DNA of 64,000 nucleotides from Candidatus Rifleibacteriota bacterium (GCA_015232575.1 JADFZL010000018.1:66264-130263), one strand, 5' to 3'; numbered from the stretch's first letter, positions 40,880 to 56,153 are shown. A program made the numbers and translations. Notes: generated by a model not told the origin, from the letters alone.

Positions 40880-41728
40880 CTATTTGGATAGTATTCCAAG
40901 AATGCCATTATTATTGAATAACCGATAATCAGGATATCTCCTCTCAAGTTCAAATTGAATTTCGTTATCAATAGGCGATATAAATGTCGGCTGACATAGT
41001 TCTACCTGAAATCTTGAGTGGCGAAAGATATTAATATAATCCTCACTGAAATACCGATTAATTTGATTACTGTTATAAGTGTAGTAGATAATTTCTTCGG
41101 CAAATCGGCAATCAAATCTGGCTAGCAAGTCAAGATAAGCCTTTGTTCGAGTCTGAAGCAAATGTCCCCATGGACGAAAAATGTAATTTTGGTGTTCCAA
41201 GCTTTTGTCGAACCTGTCAGGAATACCAATCGGTAGATGGTGGCCATCAAAAGCGCTCCAAATAGGTGAAAACATCGTGAATAGTTTGCCACCGGGCTTG
41301 AGACAATGGAACATTTTTTCCAACGCCAACGGCAGTCGATCCATGTGTTCAAAACTGGCAATTGAGAAAACAAGATCATACTTCCCAAAGTGATCTTCAG
41401 GTATCTCCTCAATCCTCATAAACAAAAGTTTATAGCGACCTGCATATTCCATCTGTGCAGAAACATTTTGATCATTTCGGTGAAAATGATAATCATATCC
41501 TGCCTCCCGATAATACGAGAGTTCTTCTACGCCCGTCCAACTATTGCATCCCAAGTGATCTAAGACCAGAGATGGTGGCAATCCCCCCCCGACTTCAAGA
41601 ACATCAATGCTTTTAAGAGGAATATACTGTAGACAGCACTCCAAGTAATTCAGGTGATAGGTAATGCTATAGACCTTCTTATAATGTTCCAGTTGCTCTT
41701 GCGTCAGACCTAGAGGAAAGTGCTGCAT
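40880..41728 (-). CDS. Class I SAM-dependent methyltransferase
   Basis: VLEVGGGLPPSLV (motif I-like). LKPGGKLF (post-I/II). Confidence 0.55.
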   Translation of the reverse strand: MQHFPLGLTQEQLEHYKKVYSITYHLNYLECCLQYIPLKSIDVLEVGGGLPPSLVLDHLGCNSWTGVEELSYYREAGYDYHFHRNDQNVSAQMEYAGRYKLLFMRIEEIPEDHFGKYDLVFSIASFEHMDRLPLALEKMFHCLKPGGKLFTMFSPIWSAFDGHHLPIGIPDRFDKSLEHQNYIFRPWGHLLQTRTKAYLDLLARFDCRFAEEIIYYTYNSNQINRYFSEDYINIFRHSRFQVELCQPTFISPIDNEIQFELERRYPDYRLFNNNGILGILSK

Positions 41729-41891: not shown

Positions 41892-43691
41892 TTATTTCCT
41901 TGCCTCTATAAAAATCGAATTTACTTTACGTACAAGGCCATTTTTATCTTTATCAAGAAGGTAAGAATTAAACTCTGGAATATCACTTTCATCGTATCTA
42001 AAAAGCTTCATATTTACAAAACCAGCATCACGCAATAATTTTTCCACCCTATAGCGATCATACATCCAATTGCAATTTTCATTCTCTACCCATGATAATT
42101 TTGGAGGTTTAAATTGTAAGAGTTCTTTAATTGATAATTCATAGAAATATTCTGCTTCATTCTGCTTCGCCATTACTTTTTCAAGATTACCAAGATAATT
42201 TCTGACTATTTGCTCTAGATCAGAAACAACTAACCGAAGAATTCCATTATTCTTTAGTATTCTCAGGACTTCGGTAATAAAAAAAGCAGCTATTTCTTTT
42301 GGTAAATACTCCAACAGGTACGAAGCATATACGACATCAGTACTATTGTTCTTCAGAGGCAGTCCATTCGAAACATCCCACTTGATGAAATTAGGAGCTG
42401 ATGAGACAATATCAAAATTTAACCATCGAATATCATAACATTCACCACAGCCAACATTGGCATAAACACCTTCGCTTGCTAAAGGAAAACCATGATAAAT
42501 CTGCTTCTGGTCTTTTTCACATGATGCATTTAAAACTTTATTGGAATTATTTGATACTAATTTTTTCCTTTTTTCAGCTATAATATCAAAATAAAAATCG
42601 CTCAGTCTTTTTGTCTGTTTGTAAATATTAAAATACTCGGCTGCCATTTTCAAATTCTTTTTAGCACTAGAATATTTTTCAAGCAATTCAAAATCCCCAG
42701 AATACAATATTTCATCCAAGGTAAACCCAATCCTATATTTATTCGCATAATAACTAGTCATTTTTGCCCGAGGGTCAATAATAATTGGTAGGCCTGCTTC
42801 AATATAATCAAATACCTTATTAGCCATTCCATATTTGATCAGATATTCTGTGTTTTCAATATTTTCGAGAGAATATGGGTTAAATAAGCCAAGATCATAA
42901 TTTTTTAATTCAGACACTAAAGAATCATATGGCAAAGTCCTGTGAAGACGAAATTTTCCGGCAGAATCTTTTTCATAGTCAATGTATTCAGAAAAAACCT
43001 CATTGAAATTACTATTTTCCGGTGGATATACATGAAAGTTCATACCAGAGGTTATTATTTTTTTTGCAACTGACAATAACCCACGATCTTTGTATTCAGG
43101 AAAATACTTTTCAACCATAAACGAGCCACAATAAACAACATGAAGATCTTTTTTTGAAGAAACAATCTTTTGGGCTAATCCACTTTCATCCAAGCATCCA
43201 TCAAATAACAATATCCTTTTCTTCCCAGTGATTAAAGAAGTATCTTTTTTATAAACTTGAGTTACAAGACTTCTACAGCACAAAGCATCTGCCTTGTTAA
43301 AACAATATTGTTCAAGAGCACACGAATCTTTATGAGATTTATGATTTAATAAAAAATCATCAGTAAACATTTTGAAAATTGTATCATATGGATCAAGAAT
43401 AATTGGAATATGGTCTATATTATTAATTAAATGATACGAGACGATGTAGTCATAATGATTAAAAACATGAAAGATGTTAGGTTCAATTTCTCTTATCGAA
43501 GAAAATAGCTCTGAAACGGAAGAAAAATATACTACCTGAAAATGTGACTCACAAGTAGAAAAATCAGTCCCTTGAGGGCAAAGAAAAACAACATGCCAGC
43601 CATTTTTTTTCAATCCGAGCGCAAGTTTTTTTTCACGATGTCTCGGTATTCCTGAAACAAAAGCAACAATATTGGATCTATTGAGAATCAT
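41892..43691 (-). CDS. Bifunctional GT-B glycosyltransferase / SAM methyltransferase fusion
   Basis: N-terminal ~380 aa carry a GT-B C-terminal-lobe signature, NKVFDYIEAGLPIIIDP. C-terminal ~200 aa carry ANVGCGECYDIRWLNFD and LRILKNNGILRLVV (Methyltransf_11/23-like). Confidence 0.5.
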   Translation of the reverse strand: MILNRSNIVAFVSGIPRHREKKLALGLKKNGWHVVFLCPQGTDFSTCESHFQVVYFSSVSELFSSIREIEPNIFHVFNHYDYIVSYHLINNIDHIPIILDPYDTIFKMFTDDFLLNHKSHKDSCALEQYCFNKADALCCRSLVTQVYKKDTSLITGKKRILLFDGCLDESGLAQKIVSSKKDLHVVYCGSFMVEKYFPEYKDRGLLSVAKKIITSGMNFHVYPPENSNFNEVFSEYIDYEKDSAGKFRLHRTLPYDSLVSELKNYDLGLFNPYSLENIENTEYLIKYGMANKVFDYIEAGLPIIIDPRAKMTSYYANKYRIGFTLDEILYSGDFELLEKYSSAKKNLKMAAEYFNIYKQTKRLSDFYFDIIAEKRKKLVSNNSNKVLNASCEKDQKQIYHGFPLASEGVYANVGCGECYDIRWLNFDIVSSAPNFIKWDVSNGLPLKNNSTDVVYASYLLEYLPKEIAAFFITEVLRILKNNGILRLVVSDLEQIVRNYLGNLEKVMAKQNEAEYFYELSIKELLQFKPPKLSWVENENCNWMYDRYRVEKLLRDAGFVNMKLFRYDESDIPEFNSYLLDKDKNGLVRKVNSIFIEARK

Positions 43692-43967: not shown

Positions 43968-45224
43968 TTACTTGTTATTGTTGTTGTATGCATCGAACAT
44001 CGTGTACATACTTGCGATATAATTTTCCATTTCGTCAGACAAATTGACTACACTTCGTTCGTTAAGCTGAAATAAATCCTTATAAACCAATCCGGAGGTT
44101 TTGAAGTAATCGTCATAGATTTTAGTTCCGGGGTAGGGCGTAAATCGATTCAGAGATACAAATGTTGGACGTATTGTATTGATTAACTCTACCGTCATCT
44201 TCATGTCGTCAATGGTCTCAAATGGAAAACCAGTTATAAAAAAGGCGGACCATTGAATACCTGACTCGTTAAGCCAGCGAGTCCTCCTAACAATCTCCTC
44301 AACCCTGAGTCGTTTTTCTATTTTATCCAATATTCGTTGCGAACCGCTTTCAACGCCGATGTAAAGTCTACTCCCGCCATATTTTATGAATCTTTCGATC
44401 TTTTCAGGCGAGAGGGCCATTACTCGAGCTCCTACGCTGAACGCAAGGCCATATTCCCTGAAGAGATTGGTGACTGACTCGAAATGCCTTTGATTAGAGA
44501 AAAAGCAGTCATCCATTGTTGTAATTGAGGCTGTTGCGTGATACTTCTCCCAGATCTCCTCTACTTCAGACCTCAGATTTTCCAGATCACGATAAATCAT
44601 TGCCTTTTCAAATGAGTGGCAACAGAAAGTGCATGTGTTAGGGCAACCCGAGGATGTCATAAGAGTTGAAAAGAAATCAGCAGAGTAAACATCCTGGTCA
44701 AGAATAAGTCTTCTGTTAGGTTTACGATTTATTAGGTTCGGTATTGCACTCACAATGTGGTCGAAATAAGGGCCAAAGTCACATCCAGGATGGCTTTTGA
44801 GCATCCCCTGAACATGAGGTCCTCCAAGCATCGTGACAACTCGGTCGCCTAAAATCTCCTTTGCTATGCGGGCAACGATATCGGCAGAATCAATTTTGGG
44901 TGTAATGGATGAGAGACCGACCACGTCAGGCCGTAATTCTTCAATGGTCCGTCTGACTTCCTGCCATATGTGATGATTATCATCGGCAAGAGCTTCTTCG
45001 TAATGATGATAATTTCTGCGGACTTCTTCTCGTGCCAAAGAACGACAATCCAGTGTTGGTCGGTCGGCATCGTAAACACAGGCTTGGTGGCCCATTTCTT
45101 CCAGATAAGTGGCAACAAGTGTCAGAGTCACAGGGTAATACCAGCGCTGGTAGCCGAAAAAACGATAGAAAGGTGGTTCGATCAAAAGCACCTTTGATTT
45201 TGGTTTGATAAATTTCATATGCAC
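43968..45224 (-). CDS. B12-binding radical SAM enzyme (class B rSAM, candidate C-methyltransferase)
   Basis: N-terminal cobalamin-binding-like domain. CxxxCxxC cluster SSGCPNTCTFCCHS. Confidence 0.8.
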   Translation of the reverse strand: MHMKFIKPKSKVLLIEPPFYRFFGYQRWYYPVTLTLVATYLEEMGHQACVYDADRPTLDCRSLAREEVRRNYHHYEEALADDNHHIWQEVRRTIEELRPDVVGLSSITPKIDSADIVARIAKEILGDRVVTMLGGPHVQGMLKSHPGCDFGPYFDHIVSAIPNLINRKPNRRLILDQDVYSADFFSTLMTSSGCPNTCTFCCHSFEKAMIYRDLENLRSEVEEIWEKYHATASITTMDDCFFSNQRHFESVTNLFREYGLAFSVGARVMALSPEKIERFIKYGGSRLYIGVESGSQRILDKIEKRLRVEEIVRRTRWLNESGIQWSAFFITGFPFETIDDMKMTVELINTIRPTFVSLNRFTPYPGTKIYDDYFKTSGLVYKDLFQLNERSVVNLSDEMENYIASMYTMFDAYNNNNK

Positions 45225-45358
45225 TTGAACAATTCCTGATGTGAACCGATAAATTTAGTGAAGGGAACTATATTTAAGCTGTTCCATATCGCGCTTGTCA
45301 ATACCTTGAATTGAAAAAATCTCCTGACTTAAGACTCCGATCATCAAACTGTGTTTAT

Positions 45359-45670
45359 TTATAAGTCTTGCTGCTGAACATGATACCTAGAATCAAAAAA
45401 TACTTCAGCATCAATGTAATTGTGCGAGGAGCAGGAAAAAAAGTCTACAGTGAGTTCTCTTAGCAACGATAGACTTTCCTGACAATAGTTTCCCTCTTTT
45501 TGATAATGGGTTAAAAAATCATCCCCAGCAAAAAACGGCTTATCTGAAAAGCTTTTCCACAAAACGCAACAGCTTATTGAAACAAGTTTTGTCAGCCCCA
45601 CACCGCAAATAAGAAATACGAACCTGCATAAAGAGGGGAACTTACTTGTGCTGTGGAAAACAAATTTCAT
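45359..45670 (-). CDS. Small hypothetical ORF between the two B12-rSAM genes (doubtful)
   Basis: 103 aa, Cys-rich. No motif. It occupies a 480-bp gap. Confidence 0.2.
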   Translation of the reverse strand: MKFVFHSTSKFPSLCRFVFLICGVGLTKLVSISCCVLWKSFSDKPFFAGDDFLTHYQKEGNYCQESLSLLRELTVDFFSCSSHNYIDAEVFFDSRYHVQQQDL

Positions 45671-45704
45671 GAGATCTCGCTTGCTTTGGTGAAGTTATCG
45701 AAGT

Positions 45705-47330
45705 CTATACCGTCAGGTTCTTGGAAAAATGTTGTATCTTGCTCGCCACTCTATTCAACAGCGTTTCATTATTCGTGATTTTAGCAATGGAAAGGAAGGT
45801 AACAAGAGAAATTATTATCCTAGGCAACAGAGCAGTCTTGGGCAAATTATATTCATTCCGGTAATTTTCCAGCTCTCTCTGGGTAACCCCATCCAATTGT
45901 CCAATAAGTAGTCCCATTTCCTCATCATGCTGCAAAAAATACTTTTTTATGCAGACGCTTTCATTATTGACAGGATTAACAAAGGTCACATCATGCGTCG
46001 GATATTTTTCAGATGAGAAAATTGCAGATCCAGGAAATGAAAGCATGTGGGTGACAAGACTTATTTGGCATGGGCTGTCCATATACTGGATAACCTGTCT
46101 GACGGTTTCCAGCAATTCATCTGTCGTGCTTTCTGGAATTCCAAGAATTAGATTGATGGTAGGATAGAGGTTATTTTCTAGCAATCCTTTCAAGACAGCA
46201 TGACATTTTTCGCTCGTAATACCCTTGCTTATAGACGCACTGCTCAGCAACCGGTCTGAAAATGTTTCTACTCCCAACGAAATGTTATGAAATCCAGCTT
46301 TTGAAAGAGCCTGCATCAGCCGGTGGTTTACGGTAGAAACCCCTTCACAGTCCTTTATCAAAAAACAGTTCGGTCTCGTCTGGCAACTGAAGCGAATATT
46401 TTCCGGCAATTCCCTCTTCTGTTTCGAAGCAATTATCAAATTGCAAATATCTATCGCGCGCTCAATCCCCGCCTTGTTCCCAATGAGAAAATCTTCGTCA
46501 TTGATGGAAAAACTTTTAGCCCCGTATTTCGTTACAAAGTGAACTATGAGATGGTGAACCTGCTCTGCCGTGAGACTCATCGGCTTTAACGCAGATCCCT
46601 GTGCCTCCTTGAGAAAATCGGGACAACAACAAAAACCGCATCGGGCAAGGCACTTGCTCGTAGTCAGAAGCCTTCCATTCTCAATGATGTAGGAGCGATT
46701 GTTTGCCAATAGTATACCGGTCGCTTTTTTTCTCATGAAGCCCCAATATCTATCGTAGGGTAAGTCTATATCGATAACATTACGGTACATGAGCTGTTCG
46801 AATTTCACGTTAGTAAGAGACTTAGCCGGATTATGAACCATACATCCGTGATCATCAAGAAAAGCAACGCCGTCACACCCTTTGAGGAATTCGCGATAAC
46901 TTGACTTAGAGCTTCCAAATTTCAAGCATATTTCCAGCAAAGCTTCTTCTGCATAACCGAGACAAACCACATCAAATCCGCACTTCAACCATTGCTTGTA
47001 GTTGATGGTGGCCTGCACACCTCCCGCGATGAACAGGCAATGTTTACCAATCCGGCGATAGATCTCCTTCAATGAATGTAGGAAATTTAGATCTTCAAGC
47101 ATTCTCCAGTGAGTGACGCTTATGCCTATAATGTCGTAAATACCATTCTCAAGATCAAGCAAATAATCGCATTCTAAATTTAGCTGATGATCCACCACAT
47201 CGCAGCGTATTCCGCTACTGTTCAGAACATGTCGCAAATTATACAAACCAATAGGAACTGACAAACTGTCAGGTGTTTCTTCCGCTGGTGATTTCGAGGT
47301 GAACAGAATAACTGCAGGTAAAACACTCAT
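45705..47330 (-). CDS. B12-binding radical SAM enzyme (second paralog)
   Basis: N-terminal B12-binding-like domain. CLARCGFCCC (Cx3Cx2C). Confidence 0.75.
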   Translation of the reverse strand: MSVLPAVILFTSKSPAEETPDSLSVPIGLYNLRHVLNSSGIRCDVVDHQLNLECDYLLDLENGIYDIIGISVTHWRMLEDLNFLHSLKEIYRRIGKHCLFIAGGVQATINYKQWLKCGFDVVCLGYAEEALLEICLKFGSSKSSYREFLKGCDGVAFLDDHGCMVHNPAKSLTNVKFEQLMYRNVIDIDLPYDRYWGFMRKKATGILLANNRSYIIENGRLLTTSKCLARCGFCCCPDFLKEAQGSALKPMSLTAEQVHHLIVHFVTKYGAKSFSINDEDFLIGNKAGIERAIDICNLIIASKQKRELPENIRFSCQTRPNCFLIKDCEGVSTVNHRLMQALSKAGFHNISLGVETFSDRLLSSASISKGITSEKCHAVLKGLLENNLYPTINLILGIPESTTDELLETVRQVIQYMDSPCQISLVTHMLSFPGSAIFSSEKYPTHDVTFVNPVNNESVCIKKYFLQHDEEMGLLIGQLDGVTQRELENYRNEYNLPKTALLPRIIISLVTFLSIAKITNNETLLNRVASKIQHFSKNLTV

Positions 47331-47761
47331 TTTGCATTACCTTCCCCTGCATTGAATCCAAGATAGAAACTTAAATTTTTCGTTTCAAAAAGTTCCTTCA
47401 ATTTTGGACGTTTTTCTCCTAGAATAATTAACCATGGAGCAATCTACGTTTTAATAAAAGAATATAAATTAGACGCCACTAATTATAGCGCTTTATTAAA
47501 AAAAAGCAAGTGGAAGTTTGACATTTATCCAGGAATTATCTATTACCATTAAAACAACTATAAATAGATGTTTATATAGAATGACTTTATTCGATGTCTT
47601 AGCAATAAAAGTTTTGTTAATGCAGATTTAAAAGAATTTTGATGGATAATTCCTGACATTTATCATTGTCTTTTGTCAAAATATTTGTTAAACTCATATG
47701 GTTGTTCACAGTTTTTGATGATGGTCAAATAATTCTAATTTTTTTAGGGAAAAACGGCTAA

Positions 47762-49036
47762 TTGAAAAAGCATTTTCAAAATCAACGAAAAGTAACTTCC
47801 TTCCAAACACTTCAGTACAGGTATGATCAGAACTGTAGACTGTGTGGGAGTGAGCGTATTTCATCAGCCCTCAAGCTACAAGATACTCCACTAGAAGACC
47901 AGTTTTTAAAAGTGCCCACCTTTCAACCTACGTTTCCTCTAGAGTTAGCCCTTTGTGAAAACTGTGGCTATCTTCATTTACCCTACATTATTAGTCCCGA
48001 AGCTAGTTACTCTGATTATATGTATGTAAGCGGTGTAACTGTGGGTCTTAGAAACCATTACGATGCGTATGCCGAAGAAATAGTTACCAATTATAATATT
48101 CCCAAAGGGTCATTGATTGTGGATTTAGGAAGTAATGATGGTTCGATGCTGGCTTCTTTCAAGCGTATCGGAATGCAAGTGCAAGGGGTAGAACCAGCTA
48201 CTGCAACAGCTAAACTTGCCAATGACAATGGCTTACAGACCATCAACGATTTCTTTACCGATAATGTTGCAACCCAAATTATTCAAGAGTATGGCATGGC
48301 TCAGGTTGTGACTGCAAACTACGTTTATGCAAATATTGACGATGTGATTAGTTTTACTAAAGCTGTTGTTAAACTTCTTTCTCCAAGCGGCATATTTGTT
48401 GTAGAGACGGGGTATCATCCAGAGCAAATGAATATTAATATGTTTGATTATATATATCATGAGCACTTTTCCTATTTCACGGTCGAAGTTTTAAAAAATC
48501 TTTTTTCTAAATGTAGTCTAGAATTAATACGAGCTACTAAAACAACTCCTAAAGGCGGTTCCATCCAGCTTGTTTGTCAACCGTCAGAAAAGCAAAAAAC
48601 TGTTGCAGACTCAGTAGAAAAATTGATTTCTGATGAATATAGACTTGGAATGCGTAACATAGAAACCTACCATCATTTTGGGAAAAAAATTCAGAATATT
48701 AAAAACAATTTACTTGACTTCCTTAAAAATATAAAATCCAAGGGTGAGAAAATAATTGGTTTTGGTGCTTCCCATAGCACGACAACCTTAATGTATCACT
48801 TTGAACTCGCTCCTTATTTAGACTTTTTAGTAGATGACAATCAGTTAAAACATGGAACTTTTTCACCAGGACATCATATACCTGTCCATCCTTCGAGTAG
48901 GCTTTATGAAGAGAACCCTGCTCATGTGTTAGTACTTGCTTGGCAACACCAAAAAACTATTCTTGAGAAACATAGTTCTCTGATAAAGAAAGGATTTAAG
49001 TTTATACTTCCTTTGCCAGAATTTAGAATTGTGTAG
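47762..49036 (+). CDS. NDP-hexose C-methyltransferase (TylCIII-like): Zn-ribbon, methyltransferase domain and C-methyltransferase domain
   Basis: N-terminal CRLCGS...CENCGY zinc-binding domain. VDLGSNDGSML motif I. C-terminal C-methyltransf-like domain. TTG start. Confidence 0.7.
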   Translation: MKKHFQNQRKVTSFQTLQYRYDQNCRLCGSERISSALKLQDTPLEDQFLKVPTFQPTFPLELALCENCGYLHLPYIISPEASYSDYMYVSGVTVGLRNHYDAYAEEIVTNYNIPKGSLIVDLGSNDGSMLASFKRIGMQVQGVEPATATAKLANDNGLQTINDFFTDNVATQIIQEYGMAQVVTANYVYANIDDVISFTKAVVKLLSPSGIFVVETGYHPEQMNINMFDYIYHEHFSYFTVEVLKNLFSKCSLELIRATKTTPKGGSIQLVCQPSEKQKTVADSVEKLISDEYRLGMRNIETYHHFGKKIQNIKNNLLDFLKNIKSKGEKIIGFGASHSTTTLMYHFELAPYLDFLVDDNQLKHGTFSPGHHIPVHPSSRLYEENPAHVLVLAWQHQKTILEKHSSLIKKGFKFILPLPEFRIV

Positions 49037-49047
49037 AGATAACTAAA

Positions 49048-50133
49048 ATGTCTTATAAAATTAACTGGTGGCGAACCTCTTTTGGTGAAGAAGAAATCAA
49101 CAGAGTGGCTCAATCTATTCGATCAGAGTGTGTAAGCCAAGGTAAGGTAACTTGCGAATTTGAGCGAAAGCTGGAAGAATTACTGCAAGTTAGGCATGTT
49201 GTTGCTGTTTCTAGCGGTAGCGTTGCCTTATTGAGTGCATTAATGGCAATTGGAATTAAACCTGGCGACGAGATAATTATCCCCAACCGTACTTGGATTG
49301 CAACAGCACATGCTGTTAAATTGTTAGGGGGCAAAGTTGTTCCCGTCGATGTAGAAGTTAATAGACCGATCATTGACGTAAACCAGATTTCGAAGGCAAT
49401 AACTTCGCAAACTCGTGCCATTATTCCGGTACATATGAATGGACGTTCTGCCGATATGCGCCGGATTCGGGAAATTGCAAAAAAATATCATCTTTTTGTA
49501 ATCGAAGATGCTGCTCAAGCAATTGCTTCAAAAAATGCTGATGGATTTCTAGGCACTCAATCCGATATTGGTTGCTTTTCTTTGTCAGTTGCTAAAACAA
49601 TTGCAACTGGCCAAGGTGGCTTCGTGGTAACGAATACTGATAATCTTGCAGAAAAATTACGTTCCATAAGAACCCACGGAGTCGAAAATGTAAAAGACCC
49701 TGGGAGGTGGGTTATGCAAGGATTCAATTTTCGCTTTACAGATGTTCTTGCATCAATAGGTATTGAGCAACTCAAGCGACTAGCTGGAAGATTGGATTAC
49801 CTCCGAGAATTATATCACATCTATGAATCCGGTCTTAAGGATTCCCCGTTCAAAATCATTCCTGTCGATATTGAAACAGGTGAGATCCCCGTCTACAATG
49901 AGTTTCTTGTTGACAATCGCCAATGGTGGATAAATCGTCTTGAAGAATCAGAAATCGAAACTCGTCCATTTTATCCTAATGTTGATCAGGCAGACTACTT
50001 GGAGGTTCCTTCTCACAACTTTCCGAATTCCGCCAAGTATAGTCTTTGCGGAATTTATTTGCCCAGTGGTCCTTCTCAGTCGGTAAGTAATATTCGGAGT
50101 GTTATAGCTGAGGTTAATAATTGCAAAAAATAA
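49048..50133 (+). CDS. DegT/DnrJ/EryC1/StrS-family PLP-dependent sugar aminotransferase
   Basis: DAAQAIAS and SLSVAKTIATGQGG (PLP lysine). 361 aa. Confidence 0.9.
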   Translation: MSYKINWWRTSFGEEEINRVAQSIRSECVSQGKVTCEFERKLEELLQVRHVVAVSSGSVALLSALMAIGIKPGDEIIIPNRTWIATAHAVKLLGGKVVPVDVEVNRPIIDVNQISKAITSQTRAIIPVHMNGRSADMRRIREIAKKYHLFVIEDAAQAIASKNADGFLGTQSDIGCFSLSVAKTIATGQGGFVVTNTDNLAEKLRSIRTHGVENVKDPGRWVMQGFNFRFTDVLASIGIEQLKRLAGRLDYLRELYHIYESGLKDSPFKIIPVDIETGEIPVYNEFLVDNRQWWINRLEESEIETRPFYPNVDQADYLEVPSHNFPNSAKYSLCGIYLPSGPSQSVSNIRSVIAEVNNCKK

Positions 50134-51050
50134 AGTTTTTATTGCTTGGAACTTCAGAGTTTACGATTATATGCGCAAATTATCTTCTTGATTCAGGTTG
50201 CGTTGTGTCTGGAATGGTAACCCTCACCCCAGAACTGCTACCAAATAATTCTGTCTCATTTGAAAATTTTTGCGCCGAAAAAAATATTCCTCTTTTAATA
50301 GTGGAAGATATAAATAATATAACTTCACTTTCTAAACTCAAACAATTTGACTCTGATTATATTTTGAGTACCTGGCCAAAAATTTTGTCGAATGCAATTC
50401 TTTCAATACCAAGGTATTTTACAATTGGCAGCCATCCGACACCACTTCCAATGTCTCGCGGGAGACATCCTTTACACTGGCTAATCTGCTTAGGTATTCC
50501 AAATACTGCCCTTACTTTTTTCCGCATGGACAATGGAATTGATACTGGTTCTATTCTATTACAAAAGTATTTTCCTGTAGGCAATTCGATTCACGATGCA
50601 AATTCTAATATGTCAAATGCTGCCAAAGAAGCAATTTTTCTATTAGTTGATACTCTTACAAAATATCCAGAATTTAAAGGTACAAAGCAAGAGGAGAATT
50701 ATTCAAACTATTGGAGAAAAAAAGATATACACGACATTACTCTTGATCCACGGATGTCTGCCTCAATGGCATTAAGAATAGTAAATTCATTTAGTCCACC
50801 TTACCCGGGTGCTGTCTTGATAATATCAAGAGAAGAATCCTTGAGAATTTTATCCGGTTCGATCGTTTCTGTATCAACAAAGTTTCCAAATTGGAAGAAC
50901 TACGAGCACGGATATATTTTTTATCATAGTAATAATGAAATAACATTGCGTTTTGATGATGCTGTTCTTTCACTCATTTTTTTTCCTTCTGGAAAAAAAA
51001 CGGCATGTGAGCCTGGAAAAAAGATTCGACCACCATCGTTTTATTCTTAA
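50121..51050 (+). CDS. Formyltransferase-family protein (sugar N-formyltransferase / Fmt-like N-terminal domain)
   Basis: IGSHPTPLPMSRGRHPLHW corresponds to the SLLP..RG formyltransferase motif. Its start overlaps the DegT gene. Confidence 0.65.
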   Translation: MQKIKFLLLGTSEFTIICANYLLDSGCVVSGMVTLTPELLPNNSVSFENFCAEKNIPLLIVEDINNITSLSKLKQFDSDYILSTWPKILSNAILSIPRYFTIGSHPTPLPMSRGRHPLHWLICLGIPNTALTFFRMDNGIDTGSILLQKYFPVGNSIHDANSNMSNAAKEAIFLLVDTLTKYPEFKGTKQEENYSNYWRKKDIHDITLDPRMSASMALRIVNSFSPPYPGAVLIISREESLRILSGSIVSVSTKFPNWKNYEHGYIFYHSNNEITLRFDDAVLSLIFFPSGKKTACEPGKKIRPPSFYS

Positions 51051-51069
51051 TTTTTGAACAGTCTTTTTG

Positions 51070-51966
51070 CTAAGCCAGCACAGTTTTTTCCGCAGCCTCC
51101 AATTTACCATGCGAATATTTATCAAATCCCAAACTCATTTCCTGAAGATACAAATAAATAGAAGCTTTGACTGTTAGAGGACGGTATTTTGTTAATAACT
51201 TCTTATTCGAAAGTACATATTTATTCTCATTGTCCTTCTCTTGACAATCTATTAAGGAATTTGAGTATAACTCTTTTCTCATCAGTTCGACGACCTCTAA
51301 AGACGTTGTAAGTTCATCAGCACAAATTATAAAGGAATCAGAAGTATCATATTGTTCATCGAAAATATGTCTAATAAAACCATAAATATCCCTAACATGT
51401 ATCAAATGGTTATACAGCATATTGCTTATTGATAAAGAAGCACTCTTTTTCAATGTTTTATATACTCCATCAATCCACCCATGTGACCCCACACCAATAA
51501 CACCTGGCATTCGAAGAGAAATTGTTTGGATATTCTCCTGTAAAATATTTTCACAAAAATATTTTGTTAAACCATATAACCCCGGGTTAATAATATCTGT
51601 ATTTTCAGTTACTTCACTCACTCTTACTGTGCCATAAACTTTTATTGAAGAAGTATAAATAATAAGCCTTGGAGCTAATTTCCTAGCAATTTTTACAACA
51701 TTCTCTGTTACTAGAATATTTGACTTTAAATATTCCTCGGCTGATTTGTTCAATAATGACTGACCGGCCATATGAATAATAATATCAATGTTGCGTTCAG
51801 GAAAATATGGGCTAATACTCAAATCATGAGAAATCCAAGAAAAATTACCGTGAATAATATTTGGATTAGTTCTTGAAACACCAAGAATAATTTCCCCGTC
51901 TCTCAAAAGTCTTGTGATTACATATTTTGCAATATAACTTGAACAACCTGTAAACAAAATATTCAT
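51070..51966 (-). CDS. NAD-dependent epimerase/dehydratase (extended SDR)
   Basis: N-terminal ILFTGCSSYIAKY nucleotide-binding region. YGLTK (YxxxK). Confidence 0.6.
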   Translation of the reverse strand: MNILFTGCSSYIAKYVITRLLRDGEIILGVSRTNPNIIHGNFSWISHDLSISPYFPERNIDIIIHMAGQSLLNKSAEEYLKSNILVTENVVKIARKLAPRLIIYTSSIKVYGTVRVSEVTENTDIINPGLYGLTKYFCENILQENIQTISLRMPGVIGVGSHGWIDGVYKTLKKSASLSISNMLYNHLIHVRDIYGFIRHIFDEQYDTSDSFIICADELTTSLEVVELMRKELYSNSLIDCQEKDNENKYVLSNKKLLTKYRPLTVKASIYLYLQEMSLGFDKYSHGKLEAAEKTVLA

Positions 51967-52508
51967 AACGTCGCTGTTTCTCTCATAAGATTATCTATAT
52001 AACTATTTACAGACAAAGTGTCTTCAACTTCAGGTGCCCAAGGAGCAAAAAAACTGTCACCACCTGGAATAAAAGGACCGATGCGACTCTCATGAAAAAT
52101 CACATAATCACTGGTAGGAACAGAAAAATGATAATAATTCTTTTCAAATCTGTACAATAAGTTTCCTTCTATCGAAACATCCAATCGCCTTAATACTTGC
52201 CCTTCCTCATTAAAAACAAAAACAATTTGGGAACCTTCAATAAGATGATACGCTTCGGCCTTTAATAAGTGTTTGTGAGGTCTTACATAGGTGTTTTTAT
52301 GGTGCAAAATAATCATATTGTGCAGTTCGGATTTTTGAGATTGATGCATAGAAATGCGTATATTTCTTTTTTCACGGAAAGCAATCTTTTTTAACTCATT
52401 AATGATTTCTTTGGTTAGAAAAACAACTTCTTCTTTACAATAGAAAGATAAAGACTTTGCCTGCACATCTTGAACAATATAAGGATAAGAAGAAAAATAG
52501 GAACTCAT
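51963..52508 (-). CDS. Cupin-fold protein (WbuC/WxcM-like sugar-modifying cupin)
   Basis: 181 aa. HHKNTYVRPHKHLLKAEAYHLIEGSQIVFVF is a cupin core. Located in a sugar operon. Confidence 0.4.
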   Translation of the reverse strand: MSSYFSSYPYIVQDVQAKSLSFYCKEEVVFLTKEIINELKKIAFREKRNIRISMHQSQKSELHNMIILHHKNTYVRPHKHLLKAEAYHLIEGSQIVFVFNEEGQVLRRLDVSIEGNLLYRFEKNYYHFSVPTSDYVIFHESRIGPFIPGGDSFFAPWAPEVEDTLSVNSYIDNLMRETATL

Positions 52509-52602
52509 TATTTAATCACCAAACCAACGCAGAATAAAAACAGATATTTTGCTAAAAGTTAATAACTTAATCAAACAAATCTCTTGAAAACAAGCTGAAA
52601 AA

Positions 52603-53541
52603 TCAGAAACAGATCTTTGATTCCTCTGAATCCCACAATCTGCAACCCTTACAAAAATCAAACTTGTCTCTCAAACCTTTCAAGTGAGTTTGTCTAAAAT
52701 TCTTAAAGTAAATCCCCTTCTGCCAAATATCCTTAATACTGTGGAAATTAATATTACCATTAACATATTTGAAATCAAAATCTACTGGACAGATTGTAAC
52801 ATCACCATTATAGCGAATTACCATGGTTGAAAAAGGCGAAGTACATGGAGACTCAATTTTCTGAAAATCTCTGACAGAAACATAATTGTCTAACTGATTT
52901 CCCCAGCTATGTACACTCTTTGCGTGAACACAATCTTGCTTTTGTAAAAAGCTTCGCCAAAACTTTCCCCATTCTTCTACTTCTGAGATGTTATCTTCCT
53001 GAATAACCATTCTTACTCTAATAATCAATTTAGACAACAGTTTATCCCTTAATTTAATAAACTGAAATATATTACCTACAACTTCTTCAAAGTTTAGACC
53101 CTTTCTTATCTTTTCGAAAGTATCTTTTTTAAGTCCATCAACTGAGAACATTATTTCATCTAAACCACATTGAAGAAGAGATAACCCTCTCTCATTGTTT
53201 AACAGCGAAGCATTTGTGGAAAAAATTACATGTTTAATGCCACATTTTTTTAAATAAGCTATTCTTTCCTCAAGCTTATCATCCAGCAAGGGTTCACCAT
53301 CTCGCGACATATTAACAACTCTTACTATGTCTTTATATTCTATTAATTCATCAGATATTTTCTGAAATAGCTCAGGGCTCATATAAGCACTACTTGATTT
53401 ATGCCATTTTTTTACAGTACACATACGGCAAGATGCATTACAAGCATTCACAGTTTCAATTTCAAAGTAAACCGGAAATAAAAAGCAATCTTCAATTCTG
53501 GATAATTTTAGTTTTTTCAGCAAAACATCAGTATTATTCAT
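52603..53541 (-). CDS. Radical SAM / SPASM-domain enzyme
   Basis: VNACNASCRMC (Cx3Cx2C). C-terminal auxiliary cysteines (CTSPF...ICPVDF...CKGCRLWD). Confidence 0.8.
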   Translation of the reverse strand: MNNTDVLLKKLKLSRIEDCFLFPVYFEIETVNACNASCRMCTVKKWHKSSSAYMSPELFQKISDELIEYKDIVRVVNMSRDGEPLLDDKLEERIAYLKKCGIKHVIFSTNASLLNNERGLSLLQCGLDEIMFSVDGLKKDTFEKIRKGLNFEEVVGNIFQFIKLRDKLLSKLIIRVRMVIQEDNISEVEEWGKFWRSFLQKQDCVHAKSVHSWGNQLDNYVSVRDFQKIESPCTSPFSTMVIRYNGDVTICPVDFDFKYVNGNINFHSIKDIWQKGIYFKNFRQTHLKGLRDKFDFCKGCRLWDSEESKICF

Positions 53542-53723
53542 TTTTCGCCAGCCAAATACACTTATTCAAAAGAGCCATACTCATTTTTCAACTCTGAAAA
53601 AGAGAAATGGTTTTAAGAAAAACGGAAACCAACCATAAATTACCATGCAAATCCAAACCTCAAATATTATGCATTATTAACGAAAACTCGTTTTCGTAGA
53701 GACAATGCTTTTACGATCGTATT

Positions 53724-54383
53724 TCAAAAATATATAAACTCATAATCACCTGTATAGCTAAATTCGGCAAAGATCCATGACCATTCTTCTGGGGAAAAGA
53801 AAGATTCACAGGTTAATGCCCAACACTGAAGATTAAATAACTCTTGTTCATTTCTGTAACTTTCAACAACAAGATATTTATTCTTACCAACGCGCTCTAT
53901 CTCAGACAACGCGTTCTTTAAACCTGCAATTCTTAAATTGTGCAATGTTGTAATAGAAATAACAAGATCAAACTCTTTATTCTGGTAAGGATATCTTTCG
54001 CTGGCATCATGCTTATGCAAATAAGCTTTCACTTCGGGTTTAGCGTTAATCAAAGCATAATCCGAAATATCTATTCCAACCACCTTTGAATTCGGAAGCA
54101 ATTCTCGTAACTCGTAGAGTAAAAAAGCTTTGCCACAGCCAACGTCAAGAATTTTTGCATCGTCTTTCAGGTCATATTGTTTTATCAGGCTTTCAGCTAC
54201 CGCTTTCCAGCGACCGTCATATCTATAGCCGCCATAACCATAACAGCGTTCGCCGTCCCAATAATCTTTTCCATATTGTCTGGCAATACGAGAACACTCT
54301 ACTTTGTTATTTATCATTCGGGAAAGAAAATCTCTTTCCGTGCTTTTGTGCAAAGGATTAATAATATTCAGCAGTTGTCCCAT
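53724..54383 (-). CDS. Class I SAM-dependent methyltransferase
   Basis: ILDVGCGKAFLLYEL (motif I). Confidence 0.8.
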   Translation of the reverse strand: MGQLLNIINPLHKSTERDFLSRMINNKVECSRIARQYGKDYWDGERCYGYGGYRYDGRWKAVAESLIKQYDLKDDAKILDVGCGKAFLLYELRELLPNSKVVGIDISDYALINAKPEVKAYLHKHDASERYPYQNKEFDLVISITTLHNLRIAGLKNALSEIERVGKNKYLVVESYRNEQELFNLQCWALTCESFFSPEEWSWIFAEFSYTGDYEFIYF

Positions 54384-54384
54384 T

Positions 54385-55308
54385 CTATTTTTTCTCTAAT
54401 ATTTGTTTAACGGTTTCAACAATATTTCTGACACTGATTCCACATGACTCTTTCATTTCTTCAAAACTACCATATTCACTACAATAACAATCATTAAAGC
54501 CTATTTTTTTGAATCTTACAGAATTTTTGTATTCCGCTAACGTATCTGCCACAGCACTCCCTAAGCCTCCAATAACACTATGCCCCTCAATGGTCACAAT
54601 GGCTTTAGTTTCCTCAGCAGCTTTAATAACAATCTCATTGTCGAACGGCTTTATTGTGTGAATATTTATCAATCTTACACTTATCGAATCACGGGCCAAT
54701 ATATCTGATGCAAGTTTGGCATCATGGACTGAATTTCCTGTTGCAATCAATGTAACATCTTTTCCATCCTTTAGAAGAATGCCCTTACCAATTTGGAAAT
54801 CGTAATCGGTATTATAAACTGCGGGTTCCTTGCTTGTTCCAAGTCGAATATAAACCGGTCCTTCGATGCTGTATGCGGCCTCAGTTGCCTTTTTTGTTTC
54901 CAAGGCATCAGCAGGCGAAAATATCTTCATATTTGGAAGCACTCTCATCAATGCAAGATCTTCTATTGCGTGATGTGTCGGGCCCAATGTCGAATAACTT
55001 ACTCCTGCTCCGATTCCAACAATTTTAACATTCATTTTTTGCATGCAAATATCATTGCGAATTTGCTCAAACGCACGCATTACAAGAAATGGAATAATGG
55101 TATAAATAAATGGAATTTTCTTACAGGAGGATACTCCAGCAGATACACTAACCATCGTGCTTTCGGCTATTCCGAAATTAACAAAATTATTCGGAAAACT
55201 TCTACGGTAACGGTCAAATACAATTGCACCATTATCAGCGACAAAAGAAAAAACGCTATTATCTCTTTCTGTCAATTGGTACAAGGTGTTTATGTAGGCA
55301 TCTCTCAT
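54385..55308 (-). CDS. Transketolase, C-terminal subunit (split transketolase)
   Basis: Transketolase Pyr/C-terminal domain. It overlaps the upstream N-terminal subunit gene. Confidence 0.9.
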   Translation of the reverse strand: MRDAYINTLYQLTERDNSVFSFVADNGAIVFDRYRRSFPNNFVNFGIAESTMVSVSAGVSSCKKIPFIYTIIPFLVMRAFEQIRNDICMQKMNVKIVGIGAGVSYSTLGPTHHAIEDLALMRVLPNMKIFSPADALETKKATEAAYSIEGPVYIRLGTSKEPAVYNTDYDFQIGKGILLKDGKDVTLIATGNSVHDAKLASDILARDSISVRLINIHTIKPFDNEIVIKAAEETKAIVTIEGHSVIGGLGSAVADTLAEYKNSVRFKKIGFNDCYCSEYGSFEEMKESCGISVRNIVETVKQILEKK

Positions 55309-56153
55309 ATATATTTCAAATCATCTCTTTCAAGGCATAATTCTTTAAGTGCTATTTTAACTTCGTTTTCATCAGGCATTCGATAATGCCAAATCGGCAC
55401 ATTTTCCATATATGAAATCCCTTTGCCCTTAGTAGTATTAGCAATAATTACACTTGGTTTTCCTTTGACAAATGGAACGCTGCTTAAAGCATCTGAAATT
55501 TGCTGAATATCATGCCCTTCAATCACTCTTGTTCCCCAACCGAAACTACGCCATTTCTCGTCCAGCGGAGACAATGAGCCAACATTATCAATAAAATCTA
55601 TTGCCTGAAGTTTATTATAATCAACAATGGCAACAATATTATCGAGTTTATGCTGATTAGCAAAAATAGCCGCCTCCCAAATGCTTCCCTCTTGACATTC
55701 ACCATCTCCCATAAGAATATAAACTTTAAAATCTTTTTTGCTCAATTTACCCCCAAAGGCAATACCTACACCAAACGGAAAACCGTGCCCCAGAGAGCCA
55801 GTCGAAGCATCAACTCCTGGCAACTTAAGCATATCAGGATGACCACCAAGGGAATTACCTTTTTGGCATGTTTTCAAAAGTAATTTCTTATCCAGGAAAC
55901 CTTTTTGTGCCAAAATTGAGTAAAGAGCAATTGAAGCATGACCTTTGCTGAGAATAAATCTGTCACGCTCTTCCCAATCTGGTTTCGACGGATTAACATT
56001 AATATACTTTTCATACAATACCGCCAGGATCTCAGCAATTGACAAAGAGGACGCGAGATGCCCGCCGCCAGCATTATACATAACTTTAAACATTATTTGC
56101 CGAAGCATCAAAACATCTTTTTCCAATTTATTTTCTTCAACTTCCATTACCAT
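55305..56153 (-). CDS. Transketolase, N-terminal (TPP-binding) subunit
   Basis: GHLASSLSIAEILAVLY and ILMGDGECQEGSIWEAA (ThDP-binding GDG motif). Confidence 0.9.
   Translation of the reverse strand: MVMEVEENKLEKDVLMLRQIMFKVMYNAGGGHLASSLSIAEILAVLYEKYINVNPSKPDWEERDRFILSKGHASIALYSILAQKGFLDKKLLLKTCQKGNSLGGHPDMLKLPGVDASTGSLGHGFPFGVGIAFGGKLSKKDFKVYILMGDGECQEGSIWEAAIFANQHKLDNIVAIVDYNKLQAIDFIDNVGSLSPLDEKWRSFGWGTRVIEGHDIQQISDALSSVPFVKGKPSVIIANTTKGKGISYMENVPIWHYRMPDENEVKIALKELCLERDDLKYI

Follow-up and report, generated by a model that had tools for sequence, protein, structure and literature searches.

Radical SAM enzymes as probable sugar-tailoring members of a flagellin glycosylation island in Candidatus Riflebacteria

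Why should genes for radical SAM (rSAM) enzymes crowd together in the neighbourhood of flagellin genes, and what would their products make there? The stretch of DNA analysed here, which we call the window (64,000 nucleotides of a metagenome-assembled genome, MAG, of Candidatus Riflebacteria; GCA_015232575.1 JADFZL010000018.1:66264-130263), holds five such genes within 16.2 kb, among nucleotide-sugar genes (Table 1). In a preliminary description the rSAM proteins had been counted as six, although it listed only five coordinates; an ORF is present at every coordinate given, and all five rSAM ORFs are real. The sole other ORF with a CxxxCxxC motif, 54793-55386 on the plus strand, runs antisense within the transketolase genes and is spurious. 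The aminotransferase, SDR epimerase/dehydratase, transketolase (a split one) and glycosyltransferase genes said to surround them are there as well. Two flagellins, FlaG, Maf, two GT41/TPR proteins and sugar operons lie within 50 kb, as in a flagellin glycosylation island. That the five genes belong to nucleotide-sugar operons inside such an island, and not to a RiPP locus, is supported. We consider it rather probable that the five proteins are sugar-tailoring enzymes of the island, and that they form part of a two-module cassette which recurs, has spread horizontally and has yet to be characterised, and the product of which would probably be an unusual methyl-branched amino sugar decorating flagella.

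Table 1. Features of the window discussed in the text, with the evidence for each assignment.
Coordinates	Strand	Assignment	Evidence
9918-11894	-	Maf	Pfam MptE-like/Maf_flag10_N
12192-14447	+	First 751-aa flagellin	Pfam Flagellin_N/C
14836-17091	+	Second 751-aa flagellin	Matching size and position
17252-17638	+	FlaG	Pfam FlaG
29357-31180	+	Second TPR + GT41 protein glycosyltransferase candidate	Glyco_transf_41 292 bits
39790-40548	-	FkbM-type SAM methyltransferase	Pfam
40880-41728	-	Class I SAM methyltransferase	Pfam
41892-43691	-	Unassigned N-terminal domain (residues 1-385) fused to C-terminal methyltransferase	Methyltransferase Pfam
43968-45224	-	B12a, 418-aa rSAM, N-terminal B12-binding-type Rossmann domain, uncharacterised family	Pfam
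45359-45670	-	Sugar N-formyltransferase gene relic, N-terminal third only	Homology to L037 formyltransferase
45705-47330	-	B12b, 541-aa rSAM, N-terminal B12-binding-type Rossmann domain, rare uncharacterised family	Pfam
47762-49036	+	NDP-hexose 3-C-methyltransferase, conventional SAM-dependent	Pfam and PDB matches
49048-50133	+	DegT/PseC-type sugar aminotransferase	PF01041 292 bits
50121-51050	+	Sugar N-formyltransferase, full length	Formyl_trans_N; ArnA-formyltransferase-like, Fmt-like
51070-51966	-	SDR epimerase or reductase	PF01370
51963-52508	-	WbuC-family cupin, possible keto-sugar isomerase/epimerase	TIGR04366 104.8 bits (cutoff 42)
52603-53541	-	BtrN-like rSAM, twitch-type auxiliary-cluster domain, putative radical sugar alcohol dehydrogenase	Radical_SAM + SPASM
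53724-54383	-	Class I SAM methyltransferase, most conserved cassette member	Pfam
54385-55308	-	Split transketolase, C-terminal subunit	Pfam Transket_pyr/Transketolase_C
55305-56153	-	Split transketolase, N-terminal subunit	Pfam Transketolase_N
56199-57266	-	rSAM with SPASM/twitch domain, four C-terminal Cys	Pfam Radical_SAM + SPASM
57270-58295	-	SDR epimerase or 4,6-dehydratase	PF01370 132.9 bits
58276-59238	-	GT9-family glycosyltransferase	PF01075
59253-60152	-	Fifth rSAM, Cys-rich C-terminus (six Cys)	Radical_SAM 27.9 bits (just below gathering, 29.5)
60174-63278	-	TPR + GT41 (OGT-like) protein glycosyltransferase candidate	Glyco_transf_41 279.7 bits, TPRs

What we call module A would comprise the C-methyltransferase, the aminotransferase and the N-formyltransferase, with B12b, B12a and the methyltransferase fusion gene on the opposite strand. 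The methyl branch foreseen by the preliminary description is well predicted, but the prediction comes from the conventional enzyme encoded at 47762-49036. The zinc-binding N-terminal, class I methyltransferase (Rossmann) and C-terminal domains of this protein, in that order (Methyltransf_13 PF08421, 51.1 bits; Methyltransf_23 PF13489, 43.7 bits; Methyltransf_14 PF08484, 158.4 bits), match over their full length MtmC (4RV9, E 1.9e-69, residues 23-423), TcaB9 and 5T64 (E 1.9e-69 to 9e-48), the last deposited as 'Sugar 3-C-methyl transferase' and presumably KijD1. MtmC, TcaB9 and KijD1 belong to the antibiotic deoxysugars mycarose, tetronitrose and kijanose, whereas their relative here sits within a protein-glycosylation island. 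The homology to MtmC and TcaB9 points to an NDP-4-keto-6-deoxyhexose as substrate class. The best NCBIfam models for the aminotransferase are PseC, LegC, ArnB and WecE, all under cutoff, and orthologues of the formyltransferase adjoin B12b in three related loci of other genomes (L001, L007, L037; L numbers denote such loci throughout). Taken together, a 3-C-methyltransferase, a 4-aminotransferase-like DegT protein and an N-formyltransferase suggest a product resembling N-formyl-kansosamine. Directly downstream of B12a, the N-terminal domain of the fusion protein has no Pfam match; its identity to the gene that immediately follows the B12a orthologues in L037, L008 (=L009) and L007 (=L011) is 25-29%, and we read this conserved domain as putatively glycosyltransferase-like (GT-B).

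Module B would consist of an rSAM, the GT9 protein, an SDR, a further rSAM, the split transketolase, a methyltransferase, the BtrN-like rSAM, the cupin and a second SDR, all within a minus-strand operon running from 60152 to 51070 with intergenic gaps of 0-182 nt. BtrN is the rSAM 2-deoxy-scyllo-inosamine dehydrogenase, a protein with a twitch domain. The product of 52603-53541 aligns with it (4M7T, E 1.1e-13) in its rSAM core as well as in its C-terminal domain, and all four auxiliary-cluster cysteines (233, 251, 297 and 300) align with those of BtrN (...spC..., ...iCp..., CkgC). It is longer, at 312 aa against 270 aa for the BtrN PDB chain, and its gene stands between a methyltransferase and a cupin in a flagellin-island operon, whereas BtrN comes from the butirosin cluster; it is the carbohydrate context that supports a putative alcohol-oxidising role. 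The SPASM label had been reserved for this protein; it applies, but equally to the product of 56199-57266, the nearest relatives of which are nucleotide-binding rSAMs (tungsten-cofactor oxidoreductase maturase, viperin and MoaA in NCBIfam, all under cutoff; MoaA and BlsE in PDB). The fifth rSAM has the motifs CHLNCAYC at residue 25 and GGEP at 77-80; orthologues, 33-38% identical, occur in L007 (=L011), L009 and L041, and in the first two of these its pairing with the GT9 gene is repeated. As for the remaining members, the SDR of 57270-58295 resembles GalE and dTDP-glucose-4,6-dehydratase in NCBIfam, under cutoffs, the transketolase halves give half-length matches of 282 and 227 bits to the NCBIfam transketolase model, and the cupin is the Pfam DUF6016-bearing protein of related loci. 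We identified neither an NDP-sugar pyrophosphorylase nor an unambiguous 4,6-dehydratase in the 64-kb window.

That the rSAM genes lie in sugar operons, as first described, is borne out across many phyla, the sugar context being kept around the homologues of both B12-domain proteins. Cassette genes are found together again in MAGs from more than 12 lineages, and also in cultured Geotalea. For B12b, 28 species-representative genomes yielded homologues with a sugar neighbourhood; each of these genomes is a MAG or a single-cell genome, and together they span more than 12 lineages, an archaeon among them. Within 10 kb of these homologues (31 loci) we counted DegT in 19, the methyltransferase of 53724-54383 in 17 (copies 38-63% identical, present also in L038 and L039), the 56199-type rSAM in 14, transketolase in 13-14, the WbuC cupin in 11 and the C-methyltransferase in nine. 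The pair itself is found again in L007, L008 and L037. Flagellin, Maf or FlaG/FliS genes adjoin the cassette in three further lineages (L003, L038, L039). In L038 and L039 the block is syntenic: an orthologue of the 56199-type rSAM (56-57%) at its head, then the N- and C-terminal transketolase halves, the methyltransferase, the BtrN-like rSAM, (an RmlD-like gene) and B12a; the former adjoins three flagellins and Maf, the latter FlaG/FliS. In two Magnetococcales MAGs a BtrN-like orthologue forms part of a B12b locus that lies some 6 kb from two flagellin genes, and among the loci fetched such orthologues occur at flagellar-adjacent ones only. At most cassette loci there is no flagellar gene within 10 kb, so that the target of the glycan would not always be flagellin.

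This recurrence also bears on the density of rSAM genes, which had been called exceptional for a protein-glycosylation locus. Set beside the flagellin islands already characterised it is so; for the cassette, such a density is a regular trait, with 3.1 rSAM ORFs per 10 kb here against 1.4-3.3 at related loci. Finding five in 16.2 kb has a Poisson probability of about 1e-3 to 2e-6 with a background of one per 20-80 kb that was assumed, not measured in the genome; co-localisation of the same genes in unrelated genomes is the stronger argument for clustering beyond chance.

What, then, would the B12-domain pair do? The two genes, described beforehand as tandem, are indeed adjacent, but not contiguous: 480 bp separate them, with a gene relic inside. 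Both proteins exceed the Pfam gathering thresholds (B12-binding 38.5 and Radical_SAM 71.8 bits for B12a, 44.1 and 42.6 for B12b; Radical_SAM gathering 29.5), and the cysteines of their CxxxCxxC [4Fe-4S] motifs (CPNTCTFC at residue 194 in B12a, CLARCGFC at residue 227 in B12b) are invariant across 44 and 39 homologues, respectively. High-confidence models give both the class-I B12-rSAM fold with its N-terminal Rossmann-type domain, the nearest solved folds including the cobalamin methylases TsrM, CysS and MgmA, and also AprD4. B12b has no full-length sequence match in PDB. No curated NCBIfam model reaches even one quarter of its own cutoff with either protein: the methylase models (PhpK, HpnR, MgmA, RiPP C-methyltransferase, Sden_1168) give at most 98.5 bits with B12a and 54.2 with B12b, for cutoffs of 251-750. 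GenK and GenD1 (gentamicin) and Fom3 are class B cobalamin-dependent rSAM C-methyltransferases whose substrates are sugar-like or nucleotide-linked; a family-level relationship of our pair to them is not detectable, and the putative substrate here is an NDP-sugar or protein-linked glycan, where theirs is an antibiotic intermediate. The equation of B12-type with C-methylase, made at the outset, is not established, with no class B methylase model near its cutoff and AprD4 as the top fold for B12a. Neither a cobalamin riboswitch nor a cobalamin gene was found in the 64-kb window, and the B12b homologues include those of Pelagibacteraceae single-cell genomes, a family for which we know of no cobalamin synthesis.

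AprD4, with AprD3, is the rSAM 1,2-diol dehydratase responsible for C3' deoxygenation in apramycin biosynthesis. Being the top structural match of B12a (17% identity) and the second best of B12b (15%), and combining an amino-sugar substrate with a B12-like Rossmann domain, it raises the possibility that B12a above all, or both proteins, work without cobalamin, the Rossmann domain being structural only: a vicinal diol would be dehydrated to a deoxy-keto sugar, then reduced by a neighbouring SDR or aminated by the aminotransferase, and the outcome would be deoxygenation, not methylation. We regard this as doubtful, if by no means negligible. The AprD4 model (NF033070) has a cutoff of 500 bits; B12a scores 36.3, which places it outside the AprD4 family, and B12b is unmatched; B12a is closer in sequence to MgmA (21%), its nearest relative in PDB; the Pfam B12-binding matches are above gathering; and of the canonical motif both families retain S-x-T-(25-29)-GG, spaced as is usual in Rossmann domains that bind cobalamin (class B proteins are expected to lack DxHxxG, and these do). 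AprD4 binds no cobalamin, and no sequence rule tells binders from AprD4-like non-binders (PMC12931638).

The closeness of B12a to MgmA invites another thought, namely that the pair methylates carbons of amino-acid side chains, in flagellin or in the giant ALTTAQ-repeat protein, abundant surface proteins both encoded at the locus. MgmA/QCMT, a protein glutamine C-methylase, and Mmp10 do this to methyl-coenzyme M reductase. We hold it to be improbable: both families keep their sugar-enzyme neighbours at loci with no flagellin within 10 kb, WbqC-like and PIG-L sugar de-N-acetylase domains are found as fusion partners of B12b-like domains, the putative glycosyltransferase domain after B12a is conserved, and the MgmA model TIGR04014, for which the cutoff is 360 bits, gives 60. 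Nor does anything tie the cassette to the ALTTAQ protein, which had also been proposed as a target of the glycan. It is very improbable, finally, that the rSAM proteins mature RiPPs, or that they are part of a secondary-metabolite cluster, such as an aminoglycoside-like one, lying beside flagellar genes by chance. True, BtrN and AprD4 originate in aminoglycoside pathways, and the top NCBIfam matches include ApyD and RiPP C-methyltransferase (B12a) as well as WgkB and PapB (SPASM proteins), but these scores, like those of the curated RiPP maturase models in general, are all far under cutoff. RiPP-type homologues with an adjacent precursor, named in the preliminary description as evidence against a sugar role, were looked for and not found. 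The intergenic gaps hold no plausible precursor-like short ORF; the single ORF in the spacer of the B12 pair, although without a Pfam or NCBIfam match, shares 36% identity across 96 aa (E 3e-14) with the full-length formyltransferase lying between both orthologues in L037. With neither a precursor gene nor a peptide-maturase model at cutoff the RiPP alternative fails, while a Pfam scan of the window found no cyclitol synthase, NRPS or PKS gene, and the neighbourhood is one of glycosyltransferases, flagellins and Maf, here as in other lineages.

Returning to the sugar-tailoring reading, we infer a pathway in which substrates, order of steps, use of cobalamin and chemical outcomes would be as follows. 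From an NDP-4-keto-6-deoxyhexose, module A would make a 6-deoxy sugar of kansosamine/viosamine type that is 3-C-methylated, aminated and N-formylated. B12a and B12b would then act at carbons out of reach of ordinary enolate chemistry, either in this nucleotide sugar or in the glycan once transferred. For B12b, which is TsrM/CysS-like, cobalamin-mediated radical C-methylation would be the most likely reaction; B12a might do likewise, or perform an AprD4-like radical dehydration. In module B, oxygen-independent oxidation of a sugar hydroxyl to a carbonyl would fall to the BtrN-like enzyme; the split transketolase, which depends on ThDP, would supply a two-carbon unit, to be capped by the methyltransferase. 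Attachment of the products to flagellin would be the task of the GT41/TPR and Maf proteins. Six SAM methyltransferases had been announced in addition to the rSAMs; those at 39790, 40880, 41892 (C-terminal domain), 47762 and 53724 stand, that at 35496 is a weak FkbM match only (32.9 bits for a cutoff of 37.7), and a further one, the seventh, lies at 8960. With six to seven such enzymes, multiple O/N-methylations of the glycan are plausible.

How far does this depart from what is known of flagellin glycosylation? The islands of Campylobacter, Aeromonas and Clostridium associate Maf with pseudaminic or legionaminic acid, those of Pseudomonas and Burkholderia make viosamine or Qui4N derivatives, and Caulobacter uses FlmG, a TPR glycosyltransferase. 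Ours shares with them flagellins, Maf, an AsnB-type amidotransferase, TPR glycosyltransferases, a DegT aminotransferase and methyltransferases; it differs in that the Pfam scan of the window found no NeuB, PseI or LegI synthase. We know of no characterised flagellin island, nor did we meet one in the literature searched, with rSAM enzymes, a split transketolase or a sugar C-methyltransferase. ThDP-dependent two-carbon transfer is familiar from other sugar pathways (YerE for yersiniose, AviB1/AviB2 for avilamycin, the split transketolase QncN/QncL), to which the split transketolase, syntenic in L038 and L039 and set here among NDP-sugar enzymes, is likened by its context. Alternatively, it could build an acyl group for N-acylation, by analogy with the Magnetococcales locus, where an E1-like ThDP enzyme stands beside a lipoyl-domain acyltransferase.

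Two flagellins, a Maf protein, GT41/TPR glycosyltransferases and a long run of genes for glycan biosynthesis stand together in the window (see the table), which identifies the locus as a flagellin glycosylation island. Divergently from the flagellins runs an operon that combines an AsnB-type amidotransferase, a metallo-beta-lactamase-fold (MBL) protein, a methyltransferase and Maf, a grouping typical of the tailoring and transfer of nonulosonic acids. Neither a NeuB/PseI-type synthase nor a CMP-transferase was found within the window, so that a second type of glycan may be made from genes located elsewhere. The giant repeat protein directly follows flaG, in the position expected of fliD; apart from its repeats it matched neither FliD nor any other functional domain.

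The preliminary description had counted six radical SAM (rSAM) proteins in this island. When the ORFs of the window are checked with Pfam and for the CxxxCxxC motif, five are found, and among them the two genes that had been assigned to the B12 type, here named B12a and B12b, are real: both proteins carry the Pfam B12-binding and Radical_SAM domains (four matches of four above gathering) together with the motif. A candidate for the sixth, an ORF of 197 aa with the motif CGLSCLFC (54793-55386, plus strand), lies antisense within the transketolase subunit genes and is almost certainly spurious; it may explain the earlier count. The tally of at least six SAM methyltransferases holds better, as six to seven are present, the one at 35496 being weak. 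For none of the five proteins did any NCBIfam model of a characterised rSAM family approach its cutoff, and the nearest relatives of the 56199-type rSAM are MoaA, viperin and BlsE.

Features of the flagellin glycosylation island and its flanks
Feature	Coordinates	Strand	Remarks
Type IV pilus genes	402-5459		
AsnB-MBL-methyltransferase-Maf operon	5488-11894	-	
Two 751-aa flagellins, then FlaG			after the preceding operon
ALTTAQ-repeat protein	17887-29190	+	3767 aa, 111 repeats; PF20080, 2384 bits
GT41/TPR glycosyltransferase			after the ALTTAQ-repeat protein
Glycan-biosynthesis genes			about 30 kb, terminating in a second GT41/TPR protein
Methyltransferase fusion	41892-43691	-	599 aa
B12a	43968-45224	-	418 aa; CxxxCxxC at residue 194
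Formyltransferase relic	45359-45670	-	103 aa
B12b	45705-47330	-	541 aa; CxxxCxxC at residue 227
MtmC-type C-methyltransferase	47762-49036		
DegT (PseC-type sugar aminotransferase)	49048-50133		
N-formyltransferase	50121-51050		full length
WbuC-family cupin	51963-52508		
BtrN-like rSAM	52603-53541		SPASM-type C-terminal domain
Conserved methyltransferase	53724		
56199-type rSAM	56199-57266		SPASM-type C-terminal domain
Fifth rSAM	59253-60152		Pfam marginal; CHLNCAYC, GGEP motif, Cys-rich tail

It is the conservation of the neighbourhood that provides the strongest evidence for a putative role of these genes in sugar metabolism. The contigs around homologues were fetched, then searched with every protein of the window. 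Relatives of B12b are spread over 28 species-representative genomes, without exception metagenome-assembled (MAGs) or single-cell ones, and belong to Geobacteraceae, Betaproteobacteria, Fibrobacterota, Magnetococcales, Anaerolineaceae, Nitrospirae, Actinomycetota, Planctomycetes, Aminicenantia, Anaeromyxobacter, Omnitrophota, Pelagibacteraceae and one archaeon. Within 10 kb of them, in 31 loci that include some duplicates, we find the DegT aminotransferase (19 loci), an orthologue of the methyltransferase at 53724 (17 loci, 38-63% identity), the 56199-type rSAM (14), a split transketolase (13-14), the WbuC/DUF6016 cupin (11) and the MtmC-type C-methyltransferase (9). Three loci (L007, L008 and L037) hold B12b and B12a together, as does the window. 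Furthermore, the minus-strand block of the window is kept in the same order in two metagenome contigs, L038 and L039, at 43-57% identity: 56199-type rSAM, transketolase-N, transketolase-C, methyltransferase and, preceded by an additional methyltransferase gene, the BtrN-like rSAM, after which come an RmlD-like reductase, a B12a orthologue and a short-chain dehydrogenase/reductase (SDR). Beyond the SDR, L038 continues with a TPR glycosyltransferase, three flagellins and Maf, and FlaG and FliS stand farther downstream in L039. Two Magnetococcales MAGs have a B12b locus with an orthologue of the BtrN-like rSAM some 6 kb from two flagellin genes. Among the fetched loci, admittedly a small sample, orthologues of the BtrN-like rSAM (at least 30% identity) are present only where flagellar genes are (L003, L004, L014, L038 and L039).

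We are thus dealing with a cassette comprising up to five or six rSAM genes, which recurs across phyla and, in four lineages or more, is linked to flagellin genes. The rSAM density, which had been deemed exceptional, is indeed high, with 3.1 ORFs per 10 kb over 43968-60152, but related loci reach 1.4-3.3, so that it is a property of the recurrent cassette and not peculiar to this genome. A majority of the cassette loci have no flagellar gene within 10 kb, and this is also the case of the fetched locus of Geotalea; the cassette therefore probably serves other surface glycans as well.

Several of the individual proteins point to carbohydrate chemistry. The product of 47762-49036 matches over its whole length MtmC, the D-mycarose 3-C-methyltransferase (4RV9, E 1.9e-69), as well as TcaB9 and 5T64, a chain deposited as 'Sugar 3-C-methyl transferase', which we take to be KijD1. 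Enzymes of the MtmC/TcaB9 type methylate C3 of NDP-4-keto-6-deoxyhexoses and, with DegT adjacent and an N-formyltransferase at hand, the set predicts a 3-C-methyl, amino, N-formyl 6-deoxyhexose, in kind like N-formylkansosamine. The rSAM at 52603-53541 can be aligned with BtrN, a radical SAM dehydrogenase from the butirosin pathway, in the core and in the twitch domain, with all four auxiliary-cluster cysteines (E 1.1e-13). B12-binding and Radical_SAM domains like those of B12b are also found inside giant proteins of 958-3660 aa (P0183, P0223, P0228 and P0233), fused to PIG-L sugar de-N-acetylase and WbqC-like domains (PF08889 for the latter), WbqC being a family of O-antigen clusters; homologue-bearing proteins of up to 6642 aa are also seen among the B12b matches. 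In the methyltransferase fusion 41892-43691, the 385 N-terminal residues match no Pfam or NCBIfam model and, by eye, look like a GT-B glycosyltransferase. This part is kept directly downstream of B12a orthologues, at 25-29% identity, in three distinct other loci (L037 6529-7713; L008, the same as L009, 11344-12528; L007, the same as L011, 11347-12480). In the Magnetococcales locus L003 (12147-15249) a fused E1-like ThDP enzyme adjoins DegT and a protein with lipoyl-attachment and hexapeptide-acyltransferase matches, both weak; from this arrangement one may suspect that the ThDP chemistry furnishes the acyl group with which the amino sugar is N-acylated, and not a C-branch.

What, then, do the two B12-domain proteins act upon, and how? 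A role in peptide maturation (RiPPs) would imply peptide-modifying homologues with an adjacent precursor. These had been named in the preliminary description as the observation that would speak against its sugar reading; they were sought and none was found. The operon that runs on the minus strand from 60152 to 51070 has intergenic gaps of 0-182 nt, and such short ORFs as the wider gaps contain do not make plausible precursors. The RiPP reading is rejected for this lack of a precursor and for the surrounding sugar genes, and the sugar context of the earlier reading stands. Within the 480 bp that separate the B12 genes lies an ORF of 103 aa, which is the N-terminal third of a sugar N-formyltransferase; it shares 36% identity (E 3e-14) with the intact enzyme (4182-5132) found in L037, the closest relative, where its gene stands between the orthologues of B12b and B12a. 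By this comparison it is a deletion relic of an ancestral order B12b-formyltransferase-B12a, the window having retained a separate full-length gene. Around the pair, scans for promoters and terminators scored no better than shuffled sequence. Nor is the pair a recent tandem duplication: either gene can be met alone in related loci, and the two families are remote kin (hhalign probability 98%, 22% identity). We consider it very probable that the B12-domain enzymes tailor sugars.

The reaction is harder to specify. AlphaFold models built from the family alignments are confident (pLDDT 93.3 and 93.9). When compared with the PDB by sequence, including with a 39-sequence profile, B12b has a single match, the B12-domain fragment 4Q37; by fold, its model ranks TsrM (28.1), AprD4 (26.2), CysS (26.1) and MgmA (24.9), then RimO, MiaB, TokK and OxsB. 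For the B12a model the order is AprD4 (27.9), MgmA (25.9), RimO (24.2), TsrM (23.9) and CysS (23.7), and its sequence profile matches MgmA (2.7e-18) and AprD4 (4.3e-18) equally well. TsrM, CysS, MgmA and TokK are cobalamin-dependent methylases and AprD4 is a 1,2-diol dehydratase that acts on an amino sugar; no sequence rule known to us would exclude an AprD4-like state. The MgmA structure is PDB 9CCB (MgmA/QCMT; PMC12931638, PMC11796369), while a 2026 review lists AprD4 among proteins that do not bind cobalamin and offers no sequence criterion that would set its like apart from cobalamin binders (PMC12931638). Both families conserve S-x-T, followed after 25-29 residues by GG, which resembles the SxL...GG of the classical cobalamin motif, and both lack DxHxxG, like class B enzymes. 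The Rfam scan of the whole window matched no family, hence no cobalamin riboswitch. Cobalamin-dependent C-methylation by at least one of the two proteins, B12b being the likelier, has in our view nearly an even chance; a dehydration of the AprD4 kind, or some other non-methylating reaction, at least for B12a, seems rather unlikely. B12-dependent C-methylation of a flagellin glycan is a candidate reaction.

For both B12-type proteins, 100% identical sequences are recorded under 'MAG: Candidatus Riflebacteria bacterium'. The B12b family is small and sharply bounded: a word-indexed search gives about 58 homologues at E below 1e-60, the next being near 1e-8, and HMMER, run exhaustively against 1.84 billion cluster representatives, gives only 88 matches at E<=1e-30. 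That of B12a is larger, with about 100 sequences above 45% identity, archaea included; a metagenome scan with its profile returned mostly generic class-B relatives (25-30%), orthologues being restricted to L038-L042. Homologues of the B12b family, at 30-31% identity, are seen in two Pelagibacteraceae single-cell genomes of the SAR11 type (L028 and L030). As this group is not known to synthesise cobalamin, the observation has a bearing on the family's actual dependence on B12. In G+C content the two B12-type genes stand at 42-43%, against 31-37% in neighbouring genes (41892-43691, 31.5%; spacer 47331-47761, 27.6%). Taken with the formyltransferase relic and with a gene order that varies among relatives, this contrast suggests a mosaic, laterally assembled locus.

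We can propose a pathway made of two modules. In module A, an SDR 4,6-dehydratase would produce an NDP-4-keto-6-deoxyhexose, to be methylated at C3 by the MtmC-like enzyme, aminated by DegT and then N-formylated; B12b, with or without B12a, would alkylate an unactivated carbon, or alternatively B12a would remove a hydroxyl, and the fusion protein 41892-43691, with its putative glycosyltransferase domain, would transfer and methylate the product. In module B, the BtrN-like rSAM would form a carbonyl without oxygen, the split transketolase would add a glycolaldehyde unit, creating a branch or a chain extension that the conserved methyltransferase would cap, and a GT9/rSAM pair would complete and transfer the sugar. 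The GT41/TPR proteins and Maf would be the protein glycosyltransferases.

Known flagellin islands make nonulosonic acids or viosamine-type sugars, and to our knowledge those characterised rely on conventional enzymes. Sugar C-methyltransferases are known from deoxysugar pathways, and radical SAM tailoring of sugars has, as far as we know, been met almost only in antibiotic pathways (DesII, BtrN, AprD4, GenK, BlsE). The enzymes of the cassette all go unmentioned in a comparative account of flagellin islands in Geobacillus. In the searchable literature, which leaves out most subscription journals and where absence is weak evidence, no paper joins radical SAM, flagellin glycosylation and cobalamin, the only two papers naming both 'radical SAM' and 'flagellin glycosylation' are unrelated, and nothing relevant connects rSAM enzymes with transketolase and sugars.

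The cassette is an uncharacterised, widely distributed, rSAM-rich nucleotide-sugar set, which includes two uncharacterised families of B12-domain rSAM enzymes. It points to a class of surface glycans of undetermined structure and to an oxygen-independent route to making them. More tentatively, it could be a mobile toolkit for nucleotide-sugar tailoring, common to uncultured and mostly anaerobic bacteria and archaea, where BtrN-like oxidation, transketolase C2 addition and the two new B12-domain families would yield amino-deoxy sugars that are C-alkylated, branched or chain-extended, destined for flagellin and for other surface glycans. If true, these would be the first cobalamin-dependent rSAM enzymes acting on NDP-sugars or protein-linked glycans, and not on antibiotics, lipids, cofactors or peptides. 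The products of the MtmC-like C-methyltransferase, DegT and the N-formyltransferase form a candidate class of substrates for both families and, as one cultured bacterium, Geotalea toluenoxydans, has an orthologue within the B12a family, the function of the B12-domain enzymes is directly testable.
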